Part shown: positions 1,999 to 25,836 of the stretch, piece after piece
How the letters are laid out: every line of letters begins with the position of its first letter
How positions within the stretch are numbered: position 1 is the first letter of the stretch
Assembly: GCA_903891735.1 (NCBI GenBank)
Contig: CAITFQ010000073.1
Location: forward strand, 1 to 25,836
DNA length: 25,836 nucleotides
Reading direction: 5' to 3'
Origin: Candidatus Uhrbacteria bacterium
Lineage (GTDB): Bacteria > Patescibacteriota > Patescibacteriia > UBA9934
Notes under the pieces: generated by a model
Databases searched by the model: none
What the model was told of the DNA's origin: nothing
What the model saw: only the letters and a program-made list of their open reading frames with translations
Made by a program: the position numbers and the translations under genes

Positions 1999-2045
1999 AC
2001 CGAGCTTTCGAGGCGCACTACGAGTCGTGCGTCGAGGAAGTCGGT
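1999..2045. repeat. Imperfect palindrome upstream of tRNA-Ile
   Basis: accga-gctt-tcga-ggcgcac / gtgcg-tcga-ggaag-tcggt pair around an 8-nt loop. Confidence 0.5.
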
Positions 2046-2090
2046 GCAGGCGTGAGTCGAAAATAGGCCAAGCTGGAATGGCAGCAGTAC

Positions 2091-2166
2091 AGGCCTGTAG
2101 CTCAGGGGTTAGAGCAGCGAGCTTATACCTCGCCGGTCGATGGTTCGATCCCATCCAGGCCTACCA
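2091..2166 (+). tRNA. tRNA-Ile, anticodon UAU (TAT)
   Basis: Acceptor AGGCCTG/CAGGCCT; D stem GCTC/GAGC; anticodon stem GCGAG/CTCGC with loop CT-TAT-AC; T arm GATGG-TTCGATC-CCATC; discriminator A73; encoded CCA. Confidence 0.93.
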
Positions 2167-15940: not shown

Positions 15941-15956
15941 AGGCTATCGTCGCCGT

Positions 15957-16147
15957 GCATCTGCCAGGTAGTCCTCCTCCTAGCTGCGCCATCGTCAACC
16001 GTAATGGCCGGCTCACCTCGGCCAGCTCAGCTGGCCAGGTCTGACTCGGGCGCCATTACAGGGCCGACGGCTGGCGTCGTCAGAGAACTACCCGACAGCT
16101 GCTGGCTCCTACGACCCACTACAAGACTTCTGGCTCGCTAACGACCT
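15957..16147 (+). repeat. Dispersed long-hairpin repeat, copy A
   Basis: GTAG foot (15968) pairs with CTAC (16088). Core CGTCAACC-GTAATGGC...GCCATTAC-AGGGCCGA; near-identical to copy D. Confidence 0.9.
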
Positions 16148-16580
16148 TTGTGGCTGCTTTCGGATAAAAGAAGTAACTGAGGACGAAGAGCAGGGTTGAG
16201 GTGATGGCGGAGCCGAGGCACCATTGGCAGATAGCGTGAATGAGGAAGATTTGGGCGAAGAGAAACCAGAGTGACATTAAGAAGCCGGCTAGGGAAAAGC
16301 GGGTGATGAGGCGGAAGATCCGTTCTTTTTTTGATTCGAGAGAGATAATCGTCCCGAAGATTAGGGTGAAGTAATAGAGGCTGCCGAGGAGGGCGACTGG
16401 AATGCCGAGGATGAGGGAGTATTGGCTGGTGGTGACGAGTTCGCAGCCGTGGGTGAGGGAACAGGGGACGATGGTTTGAGTGAAGTGTTTGATAGCCAAC
16501 CAAGTAGCGTCGCTAAAGCCGAGAACGGCCAGGACGATAAAGACAAAGGGGAACCAGGGTTTGGTTGGGGTGAGACTCAT
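16119..16580 (-). CDS. Vitamin K epoxide reductase (VKOR) family disulfide-bond formation protein
   Basis: CSLTHGCELVTTSQYS, LGIPVALLG and C-terminal CQWC, with four TM segments. Confidence 0.92.
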   Translation of the reverse strand: MSLTPTKPWFPFVFIVLAVLGFSDATWLAIKHFTQTIVPCSLTHGCELVTTSQYSLILGIPVALLGSLYYFTLIFGTIISLESKKERIFRLITRFSLAGFLMSLWFLFAQIFLIHAICQWCLGSAITSTLLFVLSYFFYPKAATKVVSEPEVL

Positions 16581-16583
16581 AGA

Positions 16584-17273
16584 CTACGGAGTAGTGGTCG
16601 GTGCTTGAGCGGTTTTAGCGAGAGCAGATTCAATGACGGCAGCGAAGGCGTTGTAGCTAGCAGGGTTGGCGATTTTTACGCCCTGGAGGAAGAAAGTAGG
16701 AGTACCGTCAATGCCGGCGGCCAAGCCACTGCGATAGTCGGCTTCGATGCGATCACGGACAGCGACGGAGCCAGAGTCGGCGTTAAACTTGTCCATATCG
16801 AGGCCGAGTGATTTAGCGTAGCCTTGGAAGGTTACCTTGGGGTCGGCGAGATCTTGCCAGCTGGTTTGATTGGCATAGAGGACGTTGTGCATTTCCCAGA
16901 ACTTGCCTTGCAGGCCGGCGGCACCAGCAGCTTCCGCAGCAGCTTCGGCGTTGGCGTGCTTTTCGCGGAGGGGGAAGTTGCGGTAGACGAAGTCGACGCG
17001 ATCGCCGTAGACGCTAATAAGTTGGGCGAGTAGTGGGTCGAATTGGCCGCAGGCTGGGCATTGGAAGTCGGCGTATTCAACTAAAGTGACGCTAGCTTCC
17101 TGGTTGCCTTTTTGCCAGTCATTGTTGGTGACGACGCTGGCCAAGGGTACTGGAACGGTCAGTTCTGAGCTTTTGACAGCGCTATAAATGCCGAAAACGA
17201 GTAAGGCGAGAACTGCTAGAGCGATCAAGTAATAGCTGAGGCGGACGAGGAGGTTCTTAGTTTGATATTCCAT
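16584..17273 (-). CDS. dsbA: DsbA-family thiol-disulfide oxidoreductase with N-terminal membrane anchor
   Basis: VEYADFQCPAC, YRNFPL, QGKFWEMH and cis-Pro GTPTF. Confidence 0.9.
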   Translation of the reverse strand: MEYQTKNLLVRLSYYLIALAVLALLVFGIYSAVKSSELTVPVPLASVVTNNDWQKGNQEASVTLVEYADFQCPACGQFDPLLAQLISVYGDRVDFVYRNFPLREKHANAEAAAEAAGAAGLQGKFWEMHNVLYANQTSWQDLADPKVTFQGYAKSLGLDMDKFNADSGSVAVRDRIEADYRSGLAAGIDGTPTFFLQGVKIANPASYNAFAAVIESALAKTAQAPTTTP

Positions 17274-17347
17274 AATGAGCCCAGTTTAGCGCAAACTTTG
17301 ATTTGGAGCAAACAAAAATCCCTTAGCGCTAGGCTAAGAGATGTTTG

Positions 17348-17433
17348 TGGTGCGCGGAAGAGGAGTCGAACCTCCACAGCCTTACGGCTACCACCCCCTC
17401 AAAGTGGCGTGTCTACCATTTCACCACCCGCGC
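17348..17433 (-). tRNA. tRNA-Leu, anticodon GAG
   Basis: Minus strand GCGCGGG...TCCGCGC-A-CCA; anticodon loop TT-GAG-GG; long variable arm AGCCGTAAGGCT. A TTGCCA-17-TATAGT promoter lies upstream. Confidence 0.93.
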
Positions 17434-17519
17434 GTGGCTAATTTGCCGCAAAACTATAGCGGAGCGGGGCTGACTTGGCAAGTTTAAGAAAATACTGTAG
17501 GATTTCGTCGAACAAATAG

Positions 17520-17596
17520 GGACGCCTAGCTCAGCTGGTTAGAGCATCTCGTTTACACCGAGAGGGTCGAGGGTTCGAATCCCCCGGCGTCCACCA
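17520..17596 (+). tRNA. tRNA-Val, anticodon TAC
   Basis: GGACGCC/GGCGTCC; TCTCG-TT-TAC-AC-CGAGA; TTCGAAT T loop; encoded CCA. Confidence 0.93.
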
Positions 17597-17695
17597 CCGA
17601 GCTGAGCTCGGTTGTTGGTTTGCGAGGAAAGCTAAGCTTTCCTAACTCAACAACAAATAATGTTGGCTCAGCGAAGGTGATCGCGCTCAGCGCGA
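17596..17695. repeat. Cluster of short palindromes with GC-TNA-GC apex in the tRNA spacer
   Basis: accgagc-tga-gctcggt (17596-17612), ggaaagc-taa-gctttcc (17626-17642), tcgcgc-tca-gcgcga (17681-17695). Confidence 0.75.
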
Positions 17696-17706
17696 CAGAA
17701 CAATAG

Positions 17707-17782
17707 GGGCTGTTAGCTCAGTTGGTAGAGCGCTTCCATGGCATGGAAGAGGTCAGCGGTTCGAGCCCGCTACGGTCCACCA
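17707..17782 (+). tRNA. tRNA-Ala, anticodon GGC
   Basis: GGGCTGT/ACGGTCC with the G3:U70 Ala determinant; CTTCC-AT-GGC-AT-GGAAG; encoded CCA. Confidence 0.94.
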
Positions 17783-17787
17783 CAAAC

Positions 17788-17820
17788 ATCTTTCAGGGCA
17801 ACCTGAAGGATTTTTGTTTT
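17788..17820 (+). terminator. Intrinsic terminator after tRNA-Ala
   Basis: atctttcagg-gcaa-cctgaaggat followed by a T tract. Confidence 0.75.
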
Positions 17821-17840
17821 GTGCTATAATTGGGATAACT

Positions 17841-18086
17841 ATGATTCAACGAATACTTATTGGTTTAGTGATCGTCGCACTTGGTTGGTTGTTGGTTTGG
17901 AAGACGGACTGGTTTATGAGCATCATGGGTTACGTCGACTGGGCCGAGAAGTGGCTAGGTGGCGGCGGCACACGCTTGTTTTATAAGTTATTGGGGACGT
18001 TGATCATCGTGATTGGTTTGATGGTGATGACAAACTTGTTTAATTCTTTTGCGGCGAGTGTGATTGGCGGCGTGTTTGGTAAATAG
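17841..18086 (+). CDS. Small hypothetical membrane protein (81 aa)
   Basis: MIQRILIGLVIVALGWLLVWKT...GGGTRLFYKLLG. An extended -10 TGCTATAAT ends 10 nt before ATG 17841. Confidence 0.75.
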   Translation: MIQRILIGLVIVALGWLLVWKTDWFMSIMGYVDWAEKWLGGGGTRLFYKLLGTLIIVIGLMVMTNLFNSFAASVIGGVFGK

Positions 18087-18101
18087 GCGGTAAATAATTT
18101 T

Positions 18102-18641
18102 ATGGCAGGAGTGGCTTTACTTGATGTGCGTGCGATTCTCGAGGCCTTGGACATTACGCCAGGGTCCAGAGTTGGCGACTTGGCGGCTGGGAGGACGGGG
18201 CATTTTGTGGTGCCTTTGAGCCGGCTAGTTGGGAGTGAAGGCGTCGTTTATGGCGTCGACTTGTTGCCGGACGTGGTGGCGGCTTTGCAAGGACATAGAA
18301 CGCAGCATGGGCTGACGCAGCTACGACCAGTGTGGGGAGATTTGGAAAGACACGAGGGCGTAGGAATCGATACAGGGACGCTTGATTTGGCACTGCTGGT
18401 CAATGCGCTTGGGAGCATGAAAGAGCGTGAGGTGGCGGCACGAGAGACAGTACGGCTGATGAAGCCGCAGGGCCGGATTGTGGTGATTGATTGGCAGACT
18501 GGGGCTAAACATCCGTTGGCTAAGTTGGCCAGAAGTATGCCGGAAGACCAGGCGGACGCGTTGTTTGACCATGTGGGGTGCCGGAAATGTGGGGAGTTTA
18601 CGCCGAGTAAGTGGCATTACGGCCGTGTCTACGCATCTTGA
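18102..18641 (+). CDS. Class I SAM-dependent methyltransferase
   Basis: Motif I-like GSRVGDLAAGRTGHF, then VYGVD, GDLE and LMKPQGRIVVIDW. Confidence 0.8.
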   Translation: MAGVALLDVRAILEALDITPGSRVGDLAAGRTGHFVVPLSRLVGSEGVVYGVDLLPDVVAALQGHRTQHGLTQLRPVWGDLERHEGVGIDTGTLDLALLVNALGSMKEREVAARETVRLMKPQGRIVVIDWQTGAKHPLAKLARSMPEDQADALFDHVGCRKCGEFTPSKWHYGRVYAS

Positions 18642-18666
18642 CGATAATGCTTGATTTACCTACCAT
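18638..18666 (+). promoter_or_regulatory. Putative sigma70 promoter for the 18676 membrane gene and yraN
   Basis: TTGACG-17 nt-TACCAT, ending 9 nt before ATG 18676. Confidence 0.55.
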
Positions 18667-18675
18667 GTCGCTACT

Positions 18676-19089
18676 ATGATTAATTTGCAGCCAGTATTAA
18701 CCGCCAGCTTTTGGTTCGATTTGACGCCAAACGCCATGGGCCCATTGTTCTCCAAGATTTTTTTCATCATTTTCGCGGTGTTGGTCATTGCGGCGTCGGC
18801 AGCTAGAATTGTCGCTAACAACAAGCTGACGGATAAGTACCACAAGATAATTGCTTTGCGCGCCGCCAACATTGCTTTCATCACCGGGATTCTCGGCTTC
18901 GTCATTTACTTCTTTACCTTTGAAGAGATTCAGTTCTTCGGTTCACGTTTTTGGTTCTTGGTGTTATTGCTCGGGGTGATTGTCGCGGTAGTGCGTTTGC
19001 TCAAGTACGCTAAGAAGGACGTGCCAGCTATGCGCAAGCACGAACAATCGAAAGCTGAAGTTAATAAATATCTTCCTCGAAGAAACTAG
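18676..19089 (+). CDS. Hypothetical membrane protein (3 TM segments)
   Basis: 137-aa ORF with three hydrophobic helices and a basic C-terminus (NKYLPRRN); 2 nt from the yraN start. Confidence 0.75.
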   Translation: MINLQPVLTASFWFDLTPNAMGPLFSKIFFIIFAVLVIAASAARIVANNKLTDKYHKIIALRAANIAFITGILGFVIYFFTFEEIQFFGSRFWFLVLLLGVIVAVVRLLKYAKKDVPAMRKHEQSKAEVNKYLPRRN

Positions 19090-19091
19090 TT

Positions 19092-19448
19092 GTGGTCGAC
19101 GCGCGCCGTATATTCGGAAATAGTTCTGAAGAGTTGGCCGCTAATTATTTGATTGACTTGGGTTATAAGATTATTGAGCGACAGTATAGTAACAAGCTCG
19201 GTGAAATCGATCTCATCGCTCTGGACGGGCGTGAGATCGTTTTTGTTGAGGTGAAAGCCAGGAAGAGTAAAGAATTTGGTTATCCGGAAGAAGCGGTGAC
19301 GCCCCATAAGCTACGGAAGATTGGGAATACAGGACTCGTTTACTTGCGGGCGAATGGGCTGGAGTCGTCCGACTACAGGATTGATGTGATTGCGATTGAA
19401 TTCTACGAGTCTCCGCCGAAGGTGACCCATTTGAAAGCAGTTTATTAA
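19092..19448 (+). CDS. yraN: YraN (UPF0102) PD-(D/E)xK nuclease-like protein
   Basis: GNSSEELAANYL..GYKI, GEIDLIA, IVFVEVKAR and YRIDVIAI. Confidence 0.93.
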   Translation: MVDARRIFGNSSEELAANYLIDLGYKIIERQYSNKLGEIDLIALDGREIVFVEVKARKSKEFGYPEEAVTPHKLRKIGNTGLVYLRANGLESSDYRIDVIAIEFYESPPKVTHLKAVY

Positions 19449-19456
19449 ATTGATAG

Positions 19457-19482
19457 GCGGGGTTACCATGCCCCGCTCTTTT
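19457..19482 (+). terminator. Intrinsic terminator after yraN
   Basis: gcgggg-ttaccatg-ccccgc followed by tctttt. Confidence 0.6.
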
Positions 19483-19512
19483 CGTCTTTGCGAGCGCTAG
19501 CGAAGCAATCTT
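19483..19512 (+). repeat. CGTC-tagged short palindrome (REP-like), copy 1
   Basis: cgtctttgcgagcgctagcgaagcaatctt; matches 25675-25704 except for two substitutions. Confidence 0.8.
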
Positions 19513-19540
19513 GAGTTAATCGATATCATCAGCGCGAGAC

Positions 19541-19706
19541 TCGGGTGGTCCCACTCCTAGCTGCGCCTCGTCAACCGTAATAGCTGGCTCACCTCGTCTG
19601 ACTCGGGGGCTATTACAGGGCCGAGGCTGGCGTCGTCCTAGGACACACCGCTCGTCTTCGCTGACAATGACCGCTCTATAAGACTTCTGGCTCATAAACG
19701 GCTTAC
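19541..19706 (+). repeat. Dispersed long-hairpin repeat, copy B
   Basis: Core CGTCAACC-GTAATAGC...GCTATTAC-AGGGCCGA; outer pair cctag/ctagg; tail agacttctggctc shared with copy A. Confidence 0.88.
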
Positions 19707-19827
19707 TCGACCTGAGTTGAAAATTTTAAGGGAGTGTGATATCGTCCAAGTAATGAACTCGGCTGATGGCCGGGTTCGTAATGTATAGAGTCAAATTCAA
19801 TTTAATAACAATTGTCGATACAAGCCT

Positions 19828-21075
19828 ATGTCCAGTGTAATTGAGCAAGCAATCCGCCAGATTTGTGATGAAAAGGGTTTGGAGTATGAATCCGTGTTGA
19901 GTACGATTGAGGCGGCGTTGGCCGCGGCGTACAGGAAGGATTTTGGTGATAAATATCATAATTTGGAGGCGGAGTTTGACCCGGAGACAGCTGGTGTGCG
20001 CGTGTTTGATGTGAAGACGGTGGTAGCTGATATTACGGATGAAGAGCGCGAGGAACTTGAGAGGAAAGAGGCTGAGAAGCAAGCGGCGCGTGAGGCCGCG
20101 CGGGCGATTGGCGATAACCGTCCGGAAAAAGAAGAGGTGCCAGTAGATGGCGTAGTTAAGTTTAATCCGAAGACGGATATCATGGAGTCGCAGGCCAAGA
20201 TTTTGAAACTAACGGCTAAAGTGGGCGACGTGTTGCGTACGGAGTTGCCGACGGCTGGTGAGTTTGGTCGCATGGCTGCGATGACTGCCAAGCAGGTGAT
20301 TACGCAAAAGTTGCGTGAAGCAGAACGCGAAATTGTGTTTAATGAGTACAAAGGTCAAGAGGGTGAGGTGTTGGTCGGCACGGTGCAACGTCGTGAAGGT
20401 CGCATAGTGCTGGTCGACATTGGTCGCACGGCTGGAATTTTGAAGCCAGAGGATCAGATGGCTAACGAGCGGTATCAGTCGGGTGACCGGATTAAGGTTT
20501 ATGTGCGTGAAGTCAGCGTTGGCCCTAGAGGCCCCCAGATTTTATTGTCGCGCACGCATGAGGGTTTGGTACGACGCTTGTTTGAGATCGAAATTCCGGA
20601 AGTTGCTGAAGGTATCGTCGTAATGAAAGCGTTGGCTCGTGAAGCTGGGGCGCGGACCAAGATTGCGGTGAGCTCGACGGATACTGCGATTGATCCGATT
20701 GGTGCTTGTATTGGTCAGCGTGGGAGCCGCATTCAGACGATTATTTCCGAGATCAGTGGTGAGAAGATCGACGTGATTGAATGGAGCGAAGATGCGAAGG
20801 AATTTATTCGTCACGCACTGGCCCCAAGTAAGATTACCAGTATTACGATTCATGAGGATGAGCGCACGGCGACCGCTTTGGTAGCAGCTGACCAGTTGTC
20901 ATTGGCGATTGGCCGGGGTGGTCAGAATGTCCGTTTGGCAGCTAAATTGACTGGTTGGAAGCTCAATATCCAGGAAGATGGTGCAACTAAACCTGTAGTT
21001 GAAGAAGTCGAATCAGCTGAGTCGTCGATTGAACCTGAGTTGGAAGCATCGGCCACCGAAGCAACAGCTGAGTAA
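19828..21075 (+). CDS. nusA: Transcription termination/antitermination factor NusA
   Basis: IEAALAAAYRK, FGRMAAMTAKQVI, AREAGARTKIAV, DPIGACIG, EKIDVIEW and AIGRGGQNVRLAAKLTGWKLNI. Confidence 0.97.
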   Translation: MSSVIEQAIRQICDEKGLEYESVLSTIEAALAAAYRKDFGDKYHNLEAEFDPETAGVRVFDVKTVVADITDEEREELERKEAEKQAAREAARAIGDNRPEKEEVPVDGVVKFNPKTDIMESQAKILKLTAKVGDVLRTELPTAGEFGRMAAMTAKQVITQKLREAEREIVFNEYKGQEGEVLVGTVQRREGRIVLVDIGRTAGILKPEDQMANERYQSGDRIKVYVREVSVGPRGPQILLSRTHEGLVRRLFEIEIPEVAEGIVVMKALAREAGARTKIAVSSTDTAIDPIGACIGQRGSRIQTIISEISGEKIDVIEWSEDAKEFIRHALAPSKITSITIHEDERTATALVAADQLSLAIGRGGQNVRLAAKLTGWKLNIQEDGATKPVVEEVESAESSIEPELEASATEATAE

Positions 21076-21077
21076 TT

Positions 21078-21845
21078 ATGGGAAATATATTTTTCACCAT
21101 TTTGTACCAGCCGTTGTATAACTTGCTGGTCGTGCTCTACAACTTGATTCCGGGCGGCGGGTTGGGCTTGGCGATCATCATCATGACGATTCTGATTAAG
21201 GGATTGTTATTTCCATTGACCTTCAAGAGTATGAAGGCGCAGAAGGACATGGCGGAGATTCAGCCGAAGATTGCCGAGATTAAAGAGAAGTACAAGAATG
21301 ATAAGGAAACGCAGGCTAAGGAGCTAATGAGCGTGTACAAGAATAATAAGGTCAATCCATTTGCGTCGTGCTTGCCGACCATTGTGCAGTTGGTGATTTT
21401 CATCACGCTGTACCAGGCCTTGCGTAAAGGTTTGGGCACGATTGATGCCACTTCGCTGTACAGCTTTGTGATGAATCCAGGCGAGATGGGTCACTGGTTC
21501 TTGGGCATTGATTTGGGTAAGGTGTCGATTCCGTTGGCGATTGTGTCCGCTATCGCCCAATACTTCCAGGCCCGCCAGATGGTGGCCAAGCGACCACCAA
21601 AGGAGGTGCGTCAAACCAGCGCCGCGATGGATGAAGATATGACAGCGACGATGAACAAGATGACGGTGATTATGTTGCCGCTGATGACTTTGTTGATTGG
21701 CGTGACGACGTTACCGGGTGGTTTAACCTTGTACATTCTGGTGTCGACGGTTTTGACCTTCTTGCTATATCACTTCTTTGTGGGCAAAATTAAAGTGGCT
21801 AATAAGAGCGAGATTATCGATGTTGTCGCTAAAGATACAAAATAA
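21078..21845 (+). CDS. yidC: Membrane protein insertase YidC/Oxa1 (short form without periplasmic domain)
   Basis: GLAIIIMTILIK.LLFPL, QPKIAEIKEKY, NPFASCLP and LPGGLTLY. Confidence 0.93.
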   Translation: MGNIFFTILYQPLYNLLVVLYNLIPGGGLGLAIIIMTILIKGLLFPLTFKSMKAQKDMAEIQPKIAEIKEKYKNDKETQAKELMSVYKNNKVNPFASCLPTIVQLVIFITLYQALRKGLGTIDATSLYSFVMNPGEMGHWFLGIDLGKVSIPLAIVSAIAQYFQARQMVAKRPPKEVRQTSAAMDEDMTATMNKMTVIMLPLMTLLIGVTTLPGGLTLYILVSTVLTFLLYHFFVGKIKVANKSEIIDVVAKDTK

Positions 21846-21862
21846 GGTACAATGGGCCCATT

Positions 21863-22873
21863 ATGGCAGCACAAGCGGCAGCTAAGTGGAAAAAAGCTCT
21901 TCTTCTGGTGGTCGCAGTGATCATCGGGGGAGGGCTTTTTGCTTTTTTGATTTGGCGAACAGGAGCAGCGGCGACGTATCAGGCCTTGCGAGCCTTTGGC
22001 GCGTTGCCGTGTATCGGGTTCGTGCTGATTTCGTTAACCAACTTTACGCTGTACAGTTTGCGTTGGCAGATTATTAGTAATGATATTTCGCCTAAACATA
22101 AGTTGCCGTTGCAGCGCTTTTTCTTACATAGAATGAGCGGCTACGCGGCTGGGTATTTGACGCCAGCTAGCCAGGTGGCAGGCGAGCCGATTCGCGTGGC
22201 GATGTTGGTGGCCGATGGCGTGCCAGTGAAAGAAGCGACGAGTTCGGTGATTTTGGATTTAGCGTTTGAGATTTCGGCAGTGGTGGCCTTTATTATTTCG
22301 GGCGTGGTGATCGCGTTGAGTCAAGGTTTTGGTGGCAGTACCGCGATTGCTGGCGCTGGCGTGATGATTGCCGTGATTGTGGCAATTCTGTTGGCATTTT
22401 TCTGGCGCTTGGCGCGGGGCGACGGGTTTTTCTCGTCGATTATGCAATTGTTGCAGTTGCACCGGGTTAAGAAGTTGCAGGGAATGTACAAATGGTTAGT
22501 GGAAACTGAGAGTTTGATTAGTAAGTTTTTTGCCGGCAAGAAGAGCAAACTGGCGTTTATTGTCATGCTTAGTATCGTCATGGTGTCCTTCAAGGCGGTG
22601 GAGGCGTTCTTTATTACCCATTTCTTTGGAGTACCGATTAGCTTGCGTGACGGCTTCTTGTTGGCGACGTTGCCAGGGATTGTGCTGTTATTGCCAGTAC
22701 CAGCTGGACTTGGGGTGTATGAAGGGAGTAACGCGGCCATCTTCTCCTTGCTTGGTTTACACTTGAATGCAGTGGCGTACACGGCGATTATTCGGATAAG
22801 AGACTTCGTGTTTATTATGATTGGTGTTATTCATGCGGTGCGTCGAGGTGAGAAGCTGATAGTGTCAGAATAG
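21863..22873 (+). CDS. UPF0104/lysylphosphatidylglycerol synthase TM-region (flippase-like) membrane protein
   Basis: LRWQII, AGYLTPASQVAGEPIR, PVPAGLGVYEG and IIRIRD, typical of the LPG_synthase_TM family. Confidence 0.85.
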   Translation: MAAQAAAKWKKALLLVVAVIIGGGLFAFLIWRTGAAATYQALRAFGALPCIGFVLISLTNFTLYSLRWQIISNDISPKHKLPLQRFFLHRMSGYAAGYLTPASQVAGEPIRVAMLVADGVPVKEATSSVILDLAFEISAVVAFIISGVVIALSQGFGGSTAIAGAGVMIAVIVAILLAFFWRLARGDGFFSSIMQLLQLHRVKKLQGMYKWLVETESLISKFFAGKKSKLAFIVMLSIVMVSFKAVEAFFITHFFGVPISLRDGFLLATLPGIVLLLPVPAGLGVYEGSNAAIFSLLGLHLNAVAYTAIIRIRDFVFIMIGVIHAVRRGEKLIVSE

Positions 22874-22874
22874 T

Positions 22875-23810
22875 ATGTTTGAGCCAGAAAATATTTCGCT
22901 GGCGTCGGTCATCGAATGGGATTGTTTTAAAGTGTTGGCTTATTTTTCTTATTTTAAATATCCGTTAACAGCTTTTGAAGTGTGGAAGTGGCAGTATAAA
23001 CCAGAGGGTAAGTGGTCACTAGAAGAAGTTATTAGGACGTTGGCGACGTCGACGTGGTTGCGCGAAAGAATGAGTGAGAAGAACGGTTTTTTTGCTTTGG
23101 GTGAAGAAGTTGAGGGTTGGTTGGCTGATAGGCACGAGCGATTTTTGGACGCGCTGCGCAAATATGAAGTATTACGGCAGGCGATGATGTTTATTGGTCG
23201 AGTGCCAGGGGTGGAAGCGGTGCTGGTTGGCAATTCTTTGGCTTGGCAGCACACTAATGTTGAGAGTGATATTGATTTGTTTATTGTAACTGAACCTAAG
23301 CGGGTGTGGAGCGTTAGGTTGTTGACAGTGGCGATGATGGCGGCTTTGCGGAAGAGGCCAGGTGAGGCGAAGATAGACCCGATTTGTTGTAGTTTTTTTA
23401 CGGATAGTAATCACTTGGATTTGGCTGATTTGAAAATTGAGGGAGCTGATGAAGAGGATCCGTACTTGGCTTTTTGGATTAGATCTTTGATTCCGGTGGT
23501 CGACAGAAAAGGAGTTCAAGGACGGTTAGAGGTGATGAATAGATGGGTGGGGGAGGCACTGCCGGCAGCTTGGGGAGTTGAGCGAGCAGCCAGGTGGCGA
23601 CTGCGGCCTAAGAAGTGTTGGCCGAGGTTAGGGTTATCTAGCATAACGGAAAACTGGGCTAAGCAGCTGCAGGAAAAAAAGTTCCCGCGGATTATTCAGG
23701 AGATGAAGAATCGGGATACGCGAGTAGTGGTTAATGATAATATGTTAAAATTTCATGAGAATGATAGACGGTCGACGATTAAACAGTTTTTAACAGATGC
23801 CTTATGTTAA
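22875..23810 (+). CDS. Pol-beta-superfamily nucleotidyltransferase-like protein with N-terminal helical/HTH-like region
   Basis: LVGNSLA...ESDIDLFIV (GS + DxD-like signature). Confidence 0.65.
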   Translation: MFEPENISLASVIEWDCFKVLAYFSYFKYPLTAFEVWKWQYKPEGKWSLEEVIRTLATSTWLRERMSEKNGFFALGEEVEGWLADRHERFLDALRKYEVLRQAMMFIGRVPGVEAVLVGNSLAWQHTNVESDIDLFIVTEPKRVWSVRLLTVAMMAALRKRPGEAKIDPICCSFFTDSNHLDLADLKIEGADEEDPYLAFWIRSLIPVVDRKGVQGRLEVMNRWVGEALPAAWGVERAARWRLRPKKCWPRLGLSSITENWAKQLQEKKFPRIIQEMKNRDTRVVVNDNMLKFHENDRRSTIKQFLTDALC

Positions 23811-25120
23811 ACATAAAAAAGATCTGGGCAGCTTATAGCTGGAAGACTTGGTGGCTGATGGTGTTTTTCTTTTTCGTACCGTGGCAGACGCATTATCTAT
23901 TTGGGCAGACGTTGATTGGTGGCTTGGTTTCACCGTTCGGCGATATTAGTTTGTATGTAACCGAGGTGTGGTTGTGGCTCGGATTGGTGTTGTCGTTGCT
24001 CCGTAAGGAAGATCGGCCCAAGTTTGCACCTGAGGCGAAGAAGCCGTTGTGTTTCGCATTGTTAGTGTTGGTGACGGCGACGTTGTCTTTAACGATGAGT
24101 GTTAACACTAATTTGTCGTTGATAATGTTGCTGCATTTGGCGTCGGCCTTGGTGCTGTTTGTGCTGCTGCTTGATAAGAAAATTGATTGGCGGCCGTTGC
24201 TAGCGGCGTTTGGTTTAGGCTTGGTGCTGCCGGCGATTTTGGGCGTCTGGCAAGTATTGTTTGATTCTTCGCCAGCGTCGACGATATTGGGTTTGGCGGC
24301 CAGAGATGCTAATAATTTGGGCGATGCAATTACGGTGAGGGGCGGTGTGCGGGAATTGCGAGCATATGGTAGCTTTCCGCACCCCAATATTTTTGCTGGT
24401 TATTTGGCGGTTGGCGTGCTGTGTCTGCGGACGTTGCTGATTCGCGCTAAAGCTGGAGCGTATCGTAAGCTGTTGCTGGCGAGTATGTTGCTGCTGACGA
24501 TTTTGCTCGTTTACACGGGCTCGCGGTCCGCGATGCTTGGCTTGCTATTAGGCATTGGGTTGGCCGCGTTTGTGACGTATTACAAGAATACAGCTAAGGC
24601 TCGTATATTAGTTGTACCACTGGCGCTGCTGGTTATTGGGCTGGGGATTGCCGGAACATTTTTGACACCGAATATTTTGTCGTCAATCAGAGGTGGCGGC
24701 ATGTTTGAGGATCAATCACTGACCGACAGGGTAGCGCAGTATGAGGCCTATCCCTCGATTATGTCGCGTGGAGTAGGCGAGTGGTTGGTTGGGTCAGGTT
24801 TGGGCACTTATACGACGAATTGGTCGACGGTGGCGCCAGGTGGTACGGCTTGGGATTACGAACCGATTCACAATATTCCGCTGTTGGTGTTGTCGGAAAT
24901 TGGCTTACTTGGCTTGATCGCGGTGCTGTTATGGGCGTCGTCGATTGATAGCGTTAACTTTGCGCGCTTCCCGAATCACGACGCGTTGATGGCGTTTGCG
25001 ATGGGGAATGTGGTGCTGGTGATTTTGTTCTTTGATCATTATATTTGGTCGAGTTATGCGGGGCTTGTGCTCATAGCTTTTGTGATGGCGCTGACGGTGA
25101 GGATGGGAGAAAAGGATTAG
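23804..25120 (+). CDS. O-antigen ligase (Wzy_C/RfaL-like) family membrane protein
   Basis: RAYGSFPHPNIFAGYL, TGSRSAMLG, GSGLG and PIHNIPLLVLSEIGLLG; many TM segments. Confidence 0.88.
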   Translation: MLNIKKIWAAYSWKTWWLMVFFFFVPWQTHYLFGQTLIGGLVSPFGDISLYVTEVWLWLGLVLSLLRKEDRPKFAPEAKKPLCFALLVLVTATLSLTMSVNTNLSLIMLLHLASALVLFVLLLDKKIDWRPLLAAFGLGLVLPAILGVWQVLFDSSPASTILGLAARDANNLGDAITVRGGVRELRAYGSFPHPNIFAGYLAVGVLCLRTLLIRAKAGAYRKLLLASMLLLTILLVYTGSRSAMLGLLLGIGLAAFVTYYKNTAKARILVVPLALLVIGLGIAGTFLTPNILSSIRGGGMFEDQSLTDRVAQYEAYPSIMSRGVGEWLVGSGLGTYTTNWSTVAPGGTAWDYEPIHNIPLLVLSEIGLLGLIAVLLWASSIDSVNFARFPNHDALMAFAMGNVVLVILFFDHYIWSSYAGLVLIAFVMALTVRMGEKD

Positions 25121-25142
25121 CTCGGCCGAGCTTCGTCGCAAA

Positions 25143-25304
25143 CATCTGCCGAGTAGTCCTGCTTCGCGCTGCAGGTCGTCAACCGTAACGGCTGGCTCAC
25201 CTCGTCCAACTCGGGGGCCGTTACAGGGCCGACCTTCGCTTGGCGCAGGAGCTACCCGACAGCTGTTCGCTCCTAAAAGGCCTGAGTGGCTCATAACGAC
25301 TTAC
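25143..25304 (+). repeat. Dispersed long-hairpin repeat, copy C
   Basis: GTAG (25153) pairs with CTAC (25252). Core CGTCAACC-GTAACGGC...GCCGTTAC-AGGGCCGA; flanks catctgcc and ctacccgacagctg shared with copy A. Confidence 0.88.
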
Positions 25305-25307
25305 GGT

Positions 25308-25334
25308 TTGGCAGTCATTGACAATGAGTGCTAG
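25308..25334 (+). promoter_or_regulatory. CIRCE element (HrcA operator) upstream of groES
   Basis: TTGGCAGTC-N9-GAGTGCTAG versus consensus TTAGCACTC-N9-GAGTGCTAA. The spacer ATTGACAAT contains a TTGACA -35-like box. Confidence 0.8.
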
Positions 25335-25374
25335 TTTTGACAATATGAGCGTGTCTAATTTAATGATATTTCCT

Positions 25375-25662
25375 ATGAATATTCGGCCATTAGGAGGACA
25401 TATTATTGTGGAAGCTAAGATTAAAGAAGCTAAGACGGCGTCGGGGATTATTTTGCCGGAGAGTGAGGAGAAGCAGCCGGAACAGGGGAAAGTGTTGGCT
25501 GTTGGCCCGGGCAAGTTTTTGGATAATGGAACCAGACAGGTAATGGAGGTGAAGATCGGTGATACGGTGGTGTTCAAGAAATACGGGCCGGATGAGATTG
25601 AGATTGATGGTAAAAAGTATTTAGTTGTTGCAGCCGAGGATATTATTGCGGTGATCGAGTGA
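25375..25662 (+). CDS. groES: Co-chaperonin GroES
   Basis: MNIRPLGGHIIV, TASGIILP, GKVLAVGPG and VKIGDTVVFKKY, 95 aa. Confidence 0.96.
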   Translation: MNIRPLGGHIIVEAKIKEAKTASGIILPESEEKQPEQGKVLAVGPGKFLDNGTRQVMEVKIGDTVVFKKYGPDEIEIDGKKYLVVAAEDIIAVIE

Positions 25663-25674
25663 TGAAGTTTAATT

Positions 25675-25704
25675 CGTCTTTGCGAGCGTCAGCGAAGCAA
25701 TCTT
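25675..25704 (+). repeat. CGTC-tagged short palindrome (REP-like), copy 2
   Basis: cgtctttgcgagcgtcagcgaagcaatctt. Confidence 0.8.
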
Positions 25705-25730
25705 ACGTAAGTCGAAAGTCGTTTCGAGGC

Positions 25731-25836
25731 CGCCAGGGCAGTCCTCCTCCTAGCTGCACCTCGTCAACCGTAATGGCCGTCTCACCTCGGCCAGCTCAGC
25801 TGGCCAGGTCTGACTCGGGCGCCATTACAGGGCCGA
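25731..25836 (+). repeat. Dispersed long-hairpin repeat, copy D (truncated by window end)
   Basis: 25741-25836 matches 15971-16067 of copy A apart from two substitutions and one indel. Confidence 0.9.

Follow-up and report, generated by a model that had tools for sequence, protein, structure and literature searches.

We analyzed a window of 25,836 nucleotides, that is, the whole of contig CAITFQ010000073.1 from a Candidatus Uhrbacteria assembly (GCA_903891735.1), in which four copies (A to D) of a long-hairpin element lie between genes. The copies are spaced by 3.5-5.5 kb in a setting of housekeeping genes such as nusA, groES and VKOR. All lie on the + strand, each 6-93 nt past a gene of the same strand (DAGK-like, UPF0102/YraN, Wzy_C-like and groES), and copy D is cut off by the contig end (Table 1). 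Sequence inspection confirmed the four copies where the initial annotation had placed them; the four invariant segments it described are present in every window copy, and the compensatory changes of the inner stem between copies are as it had listed. Overall, the element belongs to a family that is real, structured, lineage-restricted and absent from the libraries and papers searched.

Copy number, anatomy and exchange of the element

To place the window copies in their genome, we used the window's own assembly (hereafter G000; 642,780 bp, 84 contigs, 66% complete). Searching it with a profile made from copies A to D gave 46 matches at E<1e-3, so that copies exist outside the window; the window copies themselves scored between 6e-25 and 7e-50, and the repeat is far beyond chance. 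All profile matches fall between open reading frame (ORF) calls, and the family total rises to approximately 55 once a second core type is added. Moreover, the repeats break assemblies, as many of the contigs in this bin terminate within a copy.

The element measures 150-200 nt and is composed of paired left and right arms, a central asymmetric core and a 3' tail. The arms occur in at least three sequence variants, each self-complementary, and GTAG is confined to some of them. In the type I core, TCGTCAACC is followed by an 8-bp covarying stem, an apical loop of approximately 22 nt that is conserved in sequence, the stem again and AGGGCCGA; CGTC is invariant in 79/79 copies and sits 4 nt before the inner stem, in an internal loop. 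Copies A and D, and a minority of the others, carry an extra 7-bp hairpin in the apical loop. The tail, approximately 40 nt at the 3' side, is conserved without having a 5' pairing partner; a loose tail pattern used to look for solo tails in G000 returned mostly chance matches. The type II core, with 13 full copies in G000, is found within the same arms and tail as type I, while type III (in the relative G001) and type IV (in G005) occupy orthologous sites, a type IV core fragment being present in G000 as well. The arms of copy B (variant 2) are also used by the type II core and, in a relative, by the type III core. Thus, at least four interchangeable cores share arms and tail.

Table 1. Positions of the element copies and of related features (window coordinates unless a contig or locus is named)
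Feature	Position	Strand	Remarks
Copy A, type I core, arm variant 1	15947..16150	+	profile and alignment
Copy A, left arm	15947-15991	+	
Copy A, core	15992..16067	+	TCGTCAACC (15992-16000) to AGGGCCGA (16060-16067)
Copy A, inner stem	16001-08 / 16052-59	+	
Copy A, optional perfect 7-bp hairpin	16020..16036	+	apical-loop insert
Copy A, right arm	16068-16106	+	
Copy A, tail	16107-16150	+	
Copy B, type I core, arm variant 2	19529..19706	+	core 19568-19624, tail 19666-19706
Copy C, type I core	25133..25304	+	core 25176-25232; upstream of groES
Copy D, type I core, arm variant 3	25716..25836	+	core from 25761; groES-groEL spacer
Terminator-like hairpin and T run, ordinary	19456..19483	+	after UPF0102 gene; read from sequence
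Short repeat TTGCGAGCG..AGCGAAGCAA	19483..19515	+	directly 5' of copy B; distinct from the hairpin element
Short repeat TTGCGAGCG..AGCGAAGCAA, second window copy	25674..25705	+	just upstream of copy D
Y1 palindromes, G000:C14	L032:1250-1280, 2005-2035		
Y1 palindromes, G004:C7	L201:1315-1350, 2075-2110		
Y1 palindromes, G004:C19	L202:1212-1246, 2046-2080		
Y1 palindromes, G005:C17	L203		
Skew sign kept, G004:C1	L217-L225		
Skew sign kept, G002:C3	L232-L236		
Skew sign kept, G001:C2	L237-L238		
Skew sign flips, G006:C2	L226-L231		
Skew sign flips, G003:C4	L239-L242		
Skew sign flips, G007:C42	L244-L245		apparent

We then focused on orthologous sites in congeners of G000, where the element differs from genome to genome. 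Downstream of the DAGK-like gene, G000 and G004 both carry a type I element and G005 carries type IV, while G001 has just a tail and G003 is empty; the spacer orthologous to that of copy C holds type I with other arms in G004 and type III in G001. In the groES-groEL spacer, the site of copy D, type I is found in G004, and type III together with a relic of a type I left arm in G001. Upstream of nusA, where G000 has type I (copy B), G004 has a type III element; G005 lacks one there and has instead a reverse-transcriptase gene with a YADD motif (L072, G005:C8). In addition, each member of a pair of copies between dprA and a Mur ligase gene has been flipped in place between G000 and G004. Such re-cored, tail-only, flipped or empty orthologous spacers point to turnover at the DNA level. 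Within G000, 20/24 copies are nearest to another G000 copy (74-95% identity, vs 67-91% to copies elsewhere). Altogether, copies have been multiplied or homogenized per genome and exchanged at fixed sites. The gene lying between inverted copies (L101) was considered as a possible autonomous element and discarded, as it is a Mur ligase in the dprA-topA region.

The covariance model was searched in all 68 genomes of the GTDB family, comprising eight congeners (G000-G007) and 60 genomes of 14 other genera. It found 36 type I copies in G000, 9 in G002, 42 in G004 and 35 in G005, while the type I core was found in none of the 60 genomes of the other genera. G006 has one minimal copy, a core hairpin of approximately 75 nt in the atpD-atpC spacer, which is the smallest form seen. 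A search of 185,579 species genomes for the exact core pattern returned, besides G000, only three assemblies, all Candidatus Uhrbacteria; the pattern is absent from IMG/VR and from the JGI metagenome contigs, and a BLAST search of plasmids and phages found no element. A looser 17-base pattern gave 63 JGI matches, all of which proved to be chance on profile check. As for Rfam, cores of types I-IV had no match at gathering thresholds on either strand, and permissive searches gave nothing meaningful up to E 10 for copy A or up to E 0.1 for types II-IV and the G006 minimal copy. In keeping with the suggestion that it may be undescribed, the family has no Rfam match and is restricted to a small Uhrbacteria clade. 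One assembly, CAYHFQ01, is labeled "uncultured Gammaproteobacteria bacterium ERP119702_co3_211"; it is Uhrbacteria, and the label looks wrong.

Several other sequence features were observed next to the copies. The minus-strand VKOR gene (16119-16580) runs into the tail of copy A, so that the element supplies its TAG stop and roughly its last 9 codons (16119-16147); for approximately ten other copies, an opposite-strand ORF ends 0-7 nt from the end of the tail, where TTA in the tail reads as TAA on the opposite strand. Heptamers of the form CTACCNN (GGTAG on the complementary strand) make up short arrays that follow the tail at L063:2030-2090 (G001), at L064:1985-2010 (G004), and in G000:C9 and C59. 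The TTGCGAGCG..AGCGAAGCAA repeat (~32 nt) has 10 copies in G000, two in the window and eight elsewhere, often just upstream of a hairpin element; with a 7:3 distribution between G-rich and C-rich strands, it is not strand-locked. Lastly, the terminator-like hairpin and T run ahead of copy B indicate that the UPF0102 gene has its own terminator.

Fold, strand lock and GC skew

Covariation was evaluated for 28 proposed pairs, using 79 distinct type I copies drawn from four genomes. Twenty of the 28 pairs are doubly changed, with 321 doubly changed cells compared to 119 in shuffles; none of 500 shuffles reached the observed covariation, and slid controls collapsed. The conserved fold that the initial annotation deduced from the window copies is thus borne out.

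The element is C-rich although it lies on the G-rich strand of the genome, and its complement, on the C-rich strand, folds better by 10-13 kcal/mol in 25/27 type I and 13/13 type II copies. Mismatches were counted as 1x1 loops in folds restricted to Watson-Crick pairs. On the G-rich strand, type I copies have 122 A.C vs 17 G.T mismatches, full-length G000 copies 44 vs 8, and type II copies 10 vs 0, while random genome windows, used as a control, have 47 vs 86. The C-rich strand is the better-folding one because A.C outnumber G.T by approximately 7:1 in the stems of the G-rich strand. Two readings of this stand side by side. Either the fold is maintained on the C-rich strand, where the mismatches are G.T wobbles, or it forms on an exposed G-rich strand, where G.T/G.U mismatches are repaired to G-C; such repair would also explain the reversed composition of the element.

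Orientation is strongly biased. In all ten contigs with several copies, these are co-oriented, and the orientation of the window copies corresponds to the G-rich strand in 32/32 element-bearing contigs of a genome whose GC skew is extreme (~0.25). By motif, type I lies on the G-rich strand in 33/33 and type II in 13/15 cases in G000, with 15/15 and 54/55 in relatives, the latter for type I; among the few exceptions is a pair lying head to head between dprA and the Mur ligase gene, which four genomes have. Even in low-skew DNA the lock is approximately 9:1. The direction of the flanking genes, on the other hand, varies: placement just 3' of a co-oriented gene, as first described, holds within the window but not across G000, where 15 contexts are sense tandem (same/same), 9 antisense tandem (opposite/opposite), 6 convergent and 3 divergent. 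The fold asymmetry is also unchanged whether the neighboring genes lie on the same or on the opposite strand. Between the two options that the initial annotation had put forward, a single-stranded DNA (ssDNA) substrate fits better and a structured RNA less well, as orientation ignores gene direction and the fold asymmetry does not depend on which strand is transcribed.

The relation of the elements to replication was next considered, with the position of the origin inferred from dnaA and not measured. The 169,961-bp contig G004:C1, collinear with G006:C2 over 120 kb, has dnaA with DnaA boxes at approximately 104 kb, and its genes lie mostly on the - strand in the first 70 kb and mostly on the + strand from 80 to 170 kb. 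Its + strand is G-rich on both sides of dnaA (skew of 0.14-0.16 to its left, 0.30 to its right), with the same pattern at third codon positions, and its seven type I copies are all on the + strand, three to the left and four to the right of dnaA. The sign of the skew is likewise unchanged across dnaA in G002 and G001. In the element-poor G003 and G006, the skew flips classically at dnaA, and G007 appears to do so as well, with only ~4 kb assembled to the right of the gene. No contig across the 1.07 Mb of G004 has a sustained flip. In that genome, high-skew contigs (~0.25) have one copy per 14 kb and 60% of coding on the G-rich strand, compared to one copy per 50 kb and 39% in low-skew contigs (~0.08), and the contigs of G000 show the same split. 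A segment of approximately 5 kb in G004:C1 (121.6-125.4 kb, L223) is inverted relative to G006 and has its GC skew reversed, from which it follows that skew belongs to the strand itself and that the segment was inverted recently.

The simplest description of these data is that the skew is the sum of a uniform strand component and an ordinary replication component, and that the elements track the uniform one. The lock is to a contig-wide, possibly chromosome-wide, G-rich strand and not simply to fork direction, since in relatives that bear elements the sign of the skew does not change at dnaA. An origin that has moved, both flips falling within gaps of the assembly, is an alternative that these contigs would still accommodate. 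The idea that the elements are themselves directional sources of skew was rejected, as the 3 kb upstream and downstream of copies have the same skew (difference of 0.007 for G004, 0.026 for G000; zero lies within both confidence intervals). The near-absolute lock to a G-rich strand whose bias fails to switch at dnaA is the most unusual feature of the family. In practice, GC skew should not be read as a proxy for replication direction in these genomes.

Candidate mobilizing enzymes and possible readings

Four enzyme families were searched for, namely Y1, TnpB, IS110 and reverse transcriptases (RTs). G000 has two Y1 HUH genes (in C71 and C14), neither of which adjoins a copy, one of them scoring 79.2 bits against the REP-associated transposase model, just short of its cut-off of 80; similarly, no copy adjoins the Y1 genes inspected in G004 and G005. 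The Y1 gene of C14, two in G004 and one in G005 each lie between their own identical perfect palindromes, unlike the element, and these palindromes differ between paralogs and between species; indeed, the second G004 gene has a different pair from the one found between rpoD and typA. The upstream flank of the C71 gene is without anything resembling the element. Y1 paralogs are present in 26/41 family genomes, element-free congeners included, while G004, with its 42 copies, is without an orthologue of the 291-aa protein. The link to RAYT/HUH enzymes proposed initially thus found no support: none of the Y1 genes inspected is flanked by copies, the flanks that were read hold other palindromes, and the presence of Y1 genes does not track the element. 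A REPtron was rejected on the same ground, every Y1 gene with read flanks having its own, different palindromes. Two further observations concern these genes: the order rpoD-Y1-typA is syntenic in G000, G004 and G005, and TTATCCACA, which is DnaA-box-like, or motifs close to a DnaA box adjoin the Y1 palindromes.

Based on these results, our preferred reading, to which we would give a probability of about 0.45, is that the element is a modular long-hairpin repeat similar to REP (repetitive extragenic palindromic), BIME or REPIN sequences or to miniature inverted-repeat transposable elements (MITEs), lineage-restricted and non-coding, which acts as ssDNA and is not an RNA gene. A trans-acting enzyme might recognize the folded core, namely its invariant unpaired segments between covarying stems, and could then insert, exchange or retain elements on whichever strand is preferentially single-stranded. 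Among the genes found, the Y1 HUH paralogs alone are transposase-like and could be candidates for such a mobilizer.

Several observations weigh against this reading. No mobilizing enzyme is linked to the element, and the presence of Y1 genes does not track it. TnpB (PF07282; G000 and G002-G005) and IS110 (PF02371; five congeners) were not found, with positive controls in both searches, and an RT was found neither in G004, which is 100% complete and has 42 copies, nor in G000. No target-site duplication of variable sequence was seen: the flanks show just one direct repeat, a constant 6-nt TCGCTC that brackets the hairpin in relatives. No two copies are identical, the most similar pair reaching 95% in G000 while a relative has up to 98%. 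Logan contigs of two lake metagenomes break at the repeats, and no clean population-level empty site was obtained from them. Stem A.C mismatches are about seven times as frequent as G.T on the G-rich strand, so that the C-rich strand folds better, and the copies on G004:C1 do not reverse across dnaA, unlike what targeting of the lagging-strand template, of the IS200/IS605 type, would predict. The enzyme searches also disposed of two other proposals: an omega-RNA or bridge-RNA, as neither TnpB nor IS110 was found in the five congeners, and a retro-element, as both G004 and G000 bear the element and no RT was found in either. RT genes of approximately 350 aa, similar to the one upstream of nusA in G005, occur in G001, G002, G003 and G005, with weaker or fragmentary ones in G006 and none found in G007.

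The copies could instead be passive palindromes, spread without any enzyme by recombination, gene conversion or template switching, with selection against stable single-strand hairpins filtering their orientation. Such a process would accommodate the swapping of cores while arms and tail stay, the flipping of copies in place and the absence of a linked transposase; the tail-only site of G001 and the constant TCGCTC repeat in relatives fit slippage or recombination, and the version on the G-rich strand folds worse by ~10-13 kcal/mol. We nevertheless consider it unlikely, albeit the least so among the rivals, because it leaves unexplained the colonization of new intergenic sites, a near-invariant asymmetric core across species whose proteins differ by 10-25%, and a lock of ~9:1 in low-skew DNA.

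It is somewhat less probable still that the hairpins serve the host as single-strand initiation signals, similar to sso or ssi sequences, which would prime or organize complementary-strand synthesis. The uniform skew would then stem from the exposure of one strand along the chromosome by a process running in a single direction, be it rolling-circle replication, strand-displacement replication or transfer. The co-orientation of copies on both sides of dnaA in G004:C1, the constant sign of the skew there and in G002 and G001, its flip in element-poor G003, G006 and probably G007, the lack of a sustained flip in G004 and the higher copy density in its high-skew contigs are all consistent with this idea, as is a resemblance to sso elements in size, imperfect hairpin, unpaired loops, interchangeable types and orientation dependence. 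However, the exposed strand should then be the G-rich one, while the stems are better kept on the C-rich strand (unless G.T mismatches are repaired); moreover, a patchy presence within the genus with rapid turnover suits a selfish element, and skew does not rise directionally downstream of copies. In a related proposal, which we hold with equally little confidence, the hairpins would be cis signals or obligate passengers of a process that makes one strand G-rich across the likely origin, perhaps chromosome-wide. The process, which would leave one strand exposed, could be unidirectional rolling-circle or strand-displacement replication, or chromosome transfer, with the hairpins as dispersed initiation or processing sites; if true, the chromosome would be maintained in a strand-asymmetric manner so far undescribed in bacteria. 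Finally, a structured RNA made from each copy (a small RNA, 3'-UTR stabilizer, terminator or ribozyme) is highly improbable: covarying stems with conserved loops, the many copies that abut stop codons and the G.U-compatible mismatches on one strand would suit it, but orientation and better-folding strand are unrelated to gene direction, cores are exchanged at fixed sites, Rfam has no match on either strand, a search for RNA runs containing the locus found none, and reading the tail and flanks of several copies revealed no conserved promoter or terminator, although no scan was run.

Genomes of the candidate phyla radiation are usually described as streamlined and repeat-poor. Here, one hairpin superfamily occupies approximately 1.5% of a sub-megabase genome, with a near-invariant core, exchangeable modules and a near-absolute strand lock. 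If the elements are moved by an enzyme, this would be a new hairpin-recognizing ssDNA system in a lineage without genetics; if they serve the process behind the non-flipping skew, it would be an unrecognized way of handling a chromosome.

Comparison with known systems

Y1 HUH enzymes act on hairpins in ssDNA, and REPs pair into larger hairpins (PMC6006769, PMC3733652). Like REP, BIME and REPIN sequences with their RAYTs (PMC3733652, PMC3116915, PMC6006769), the element is high-copy, extragenic and hairpin-forming, with several types per genome; its units join into larger hairpins, and the genome has Y1 HUH genes. REPs have a conserved GTAG/GTGG or CGTC tetranucleotide at the 5' foot of the hairpin; the invariant CGTC of the element is next to a stem but falls in an internal loop. 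It differs in length, as a REP unit has 20-40 nt and the element 150-200 nt (4-8 times longer), in being most conserved in an asymmetric central core and not at its ends, and in flanking no Y1 gene; nor does the presence of Y1 genes track the repeat across genomes. Its lock to one strand is a further difference, unmentioned in the REP papers searched.

IS200/IS605 elements and their miniature derivatives are alike in being strand-specific, in needing folded ssDNA and in having no variable target duplication (PMC6006769). Here, however, one long hairpin replaces two different subterminal ones, no TnpB was found (PF07282), the Y1 genes are without these ends, and orientation does not reverse across dnaA.

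ERIC/IRU, Correia (NEMIS) and RUP MITEs resemble the element as intergenic imperfect palindromes of 100-200 bp with subfamilies. MITEs of this type are often co-transcribed with their neighbors, and have the terminal inverted repeats and target duplications of insertion sequences; to our knowledge, they are not strand-locked. With regard to these hallmarks, the element has inverted symmetry over its whole length and a flanking direct repeat that is constant and not variable. It also differs in that its arms covary freely, its core is invariant and exchangeable, and its orientation is fixed.

Single-strand signals such as sso, ssi and Frpo are imperfect hairpins of ~150-300 nt that work in a single orientation on ssDNA, with conserved unpaired loops and interchangeable types, and the element would appear to resemble them in size, fold and strict co-orientation. 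They are known from plasmids and phages, each of which has one or a few of them, whereas the element has approximately 50 chromosomal copies, and the CS-6 hexamer of ssoA was not seen in the family consensus. In integron attC sites, structure is kept above sequence, one folded strand is active, and orientation relative to the chromosome matters. The element shares these three properties; it differs in having no integrase-linked cassette array, its copies being dispersed among housekeeping genes. Altogether, while departing from each of them in the tests by which they are defined, the element works most like REP/BIME/REPIN sequences or hairpin MITEs.

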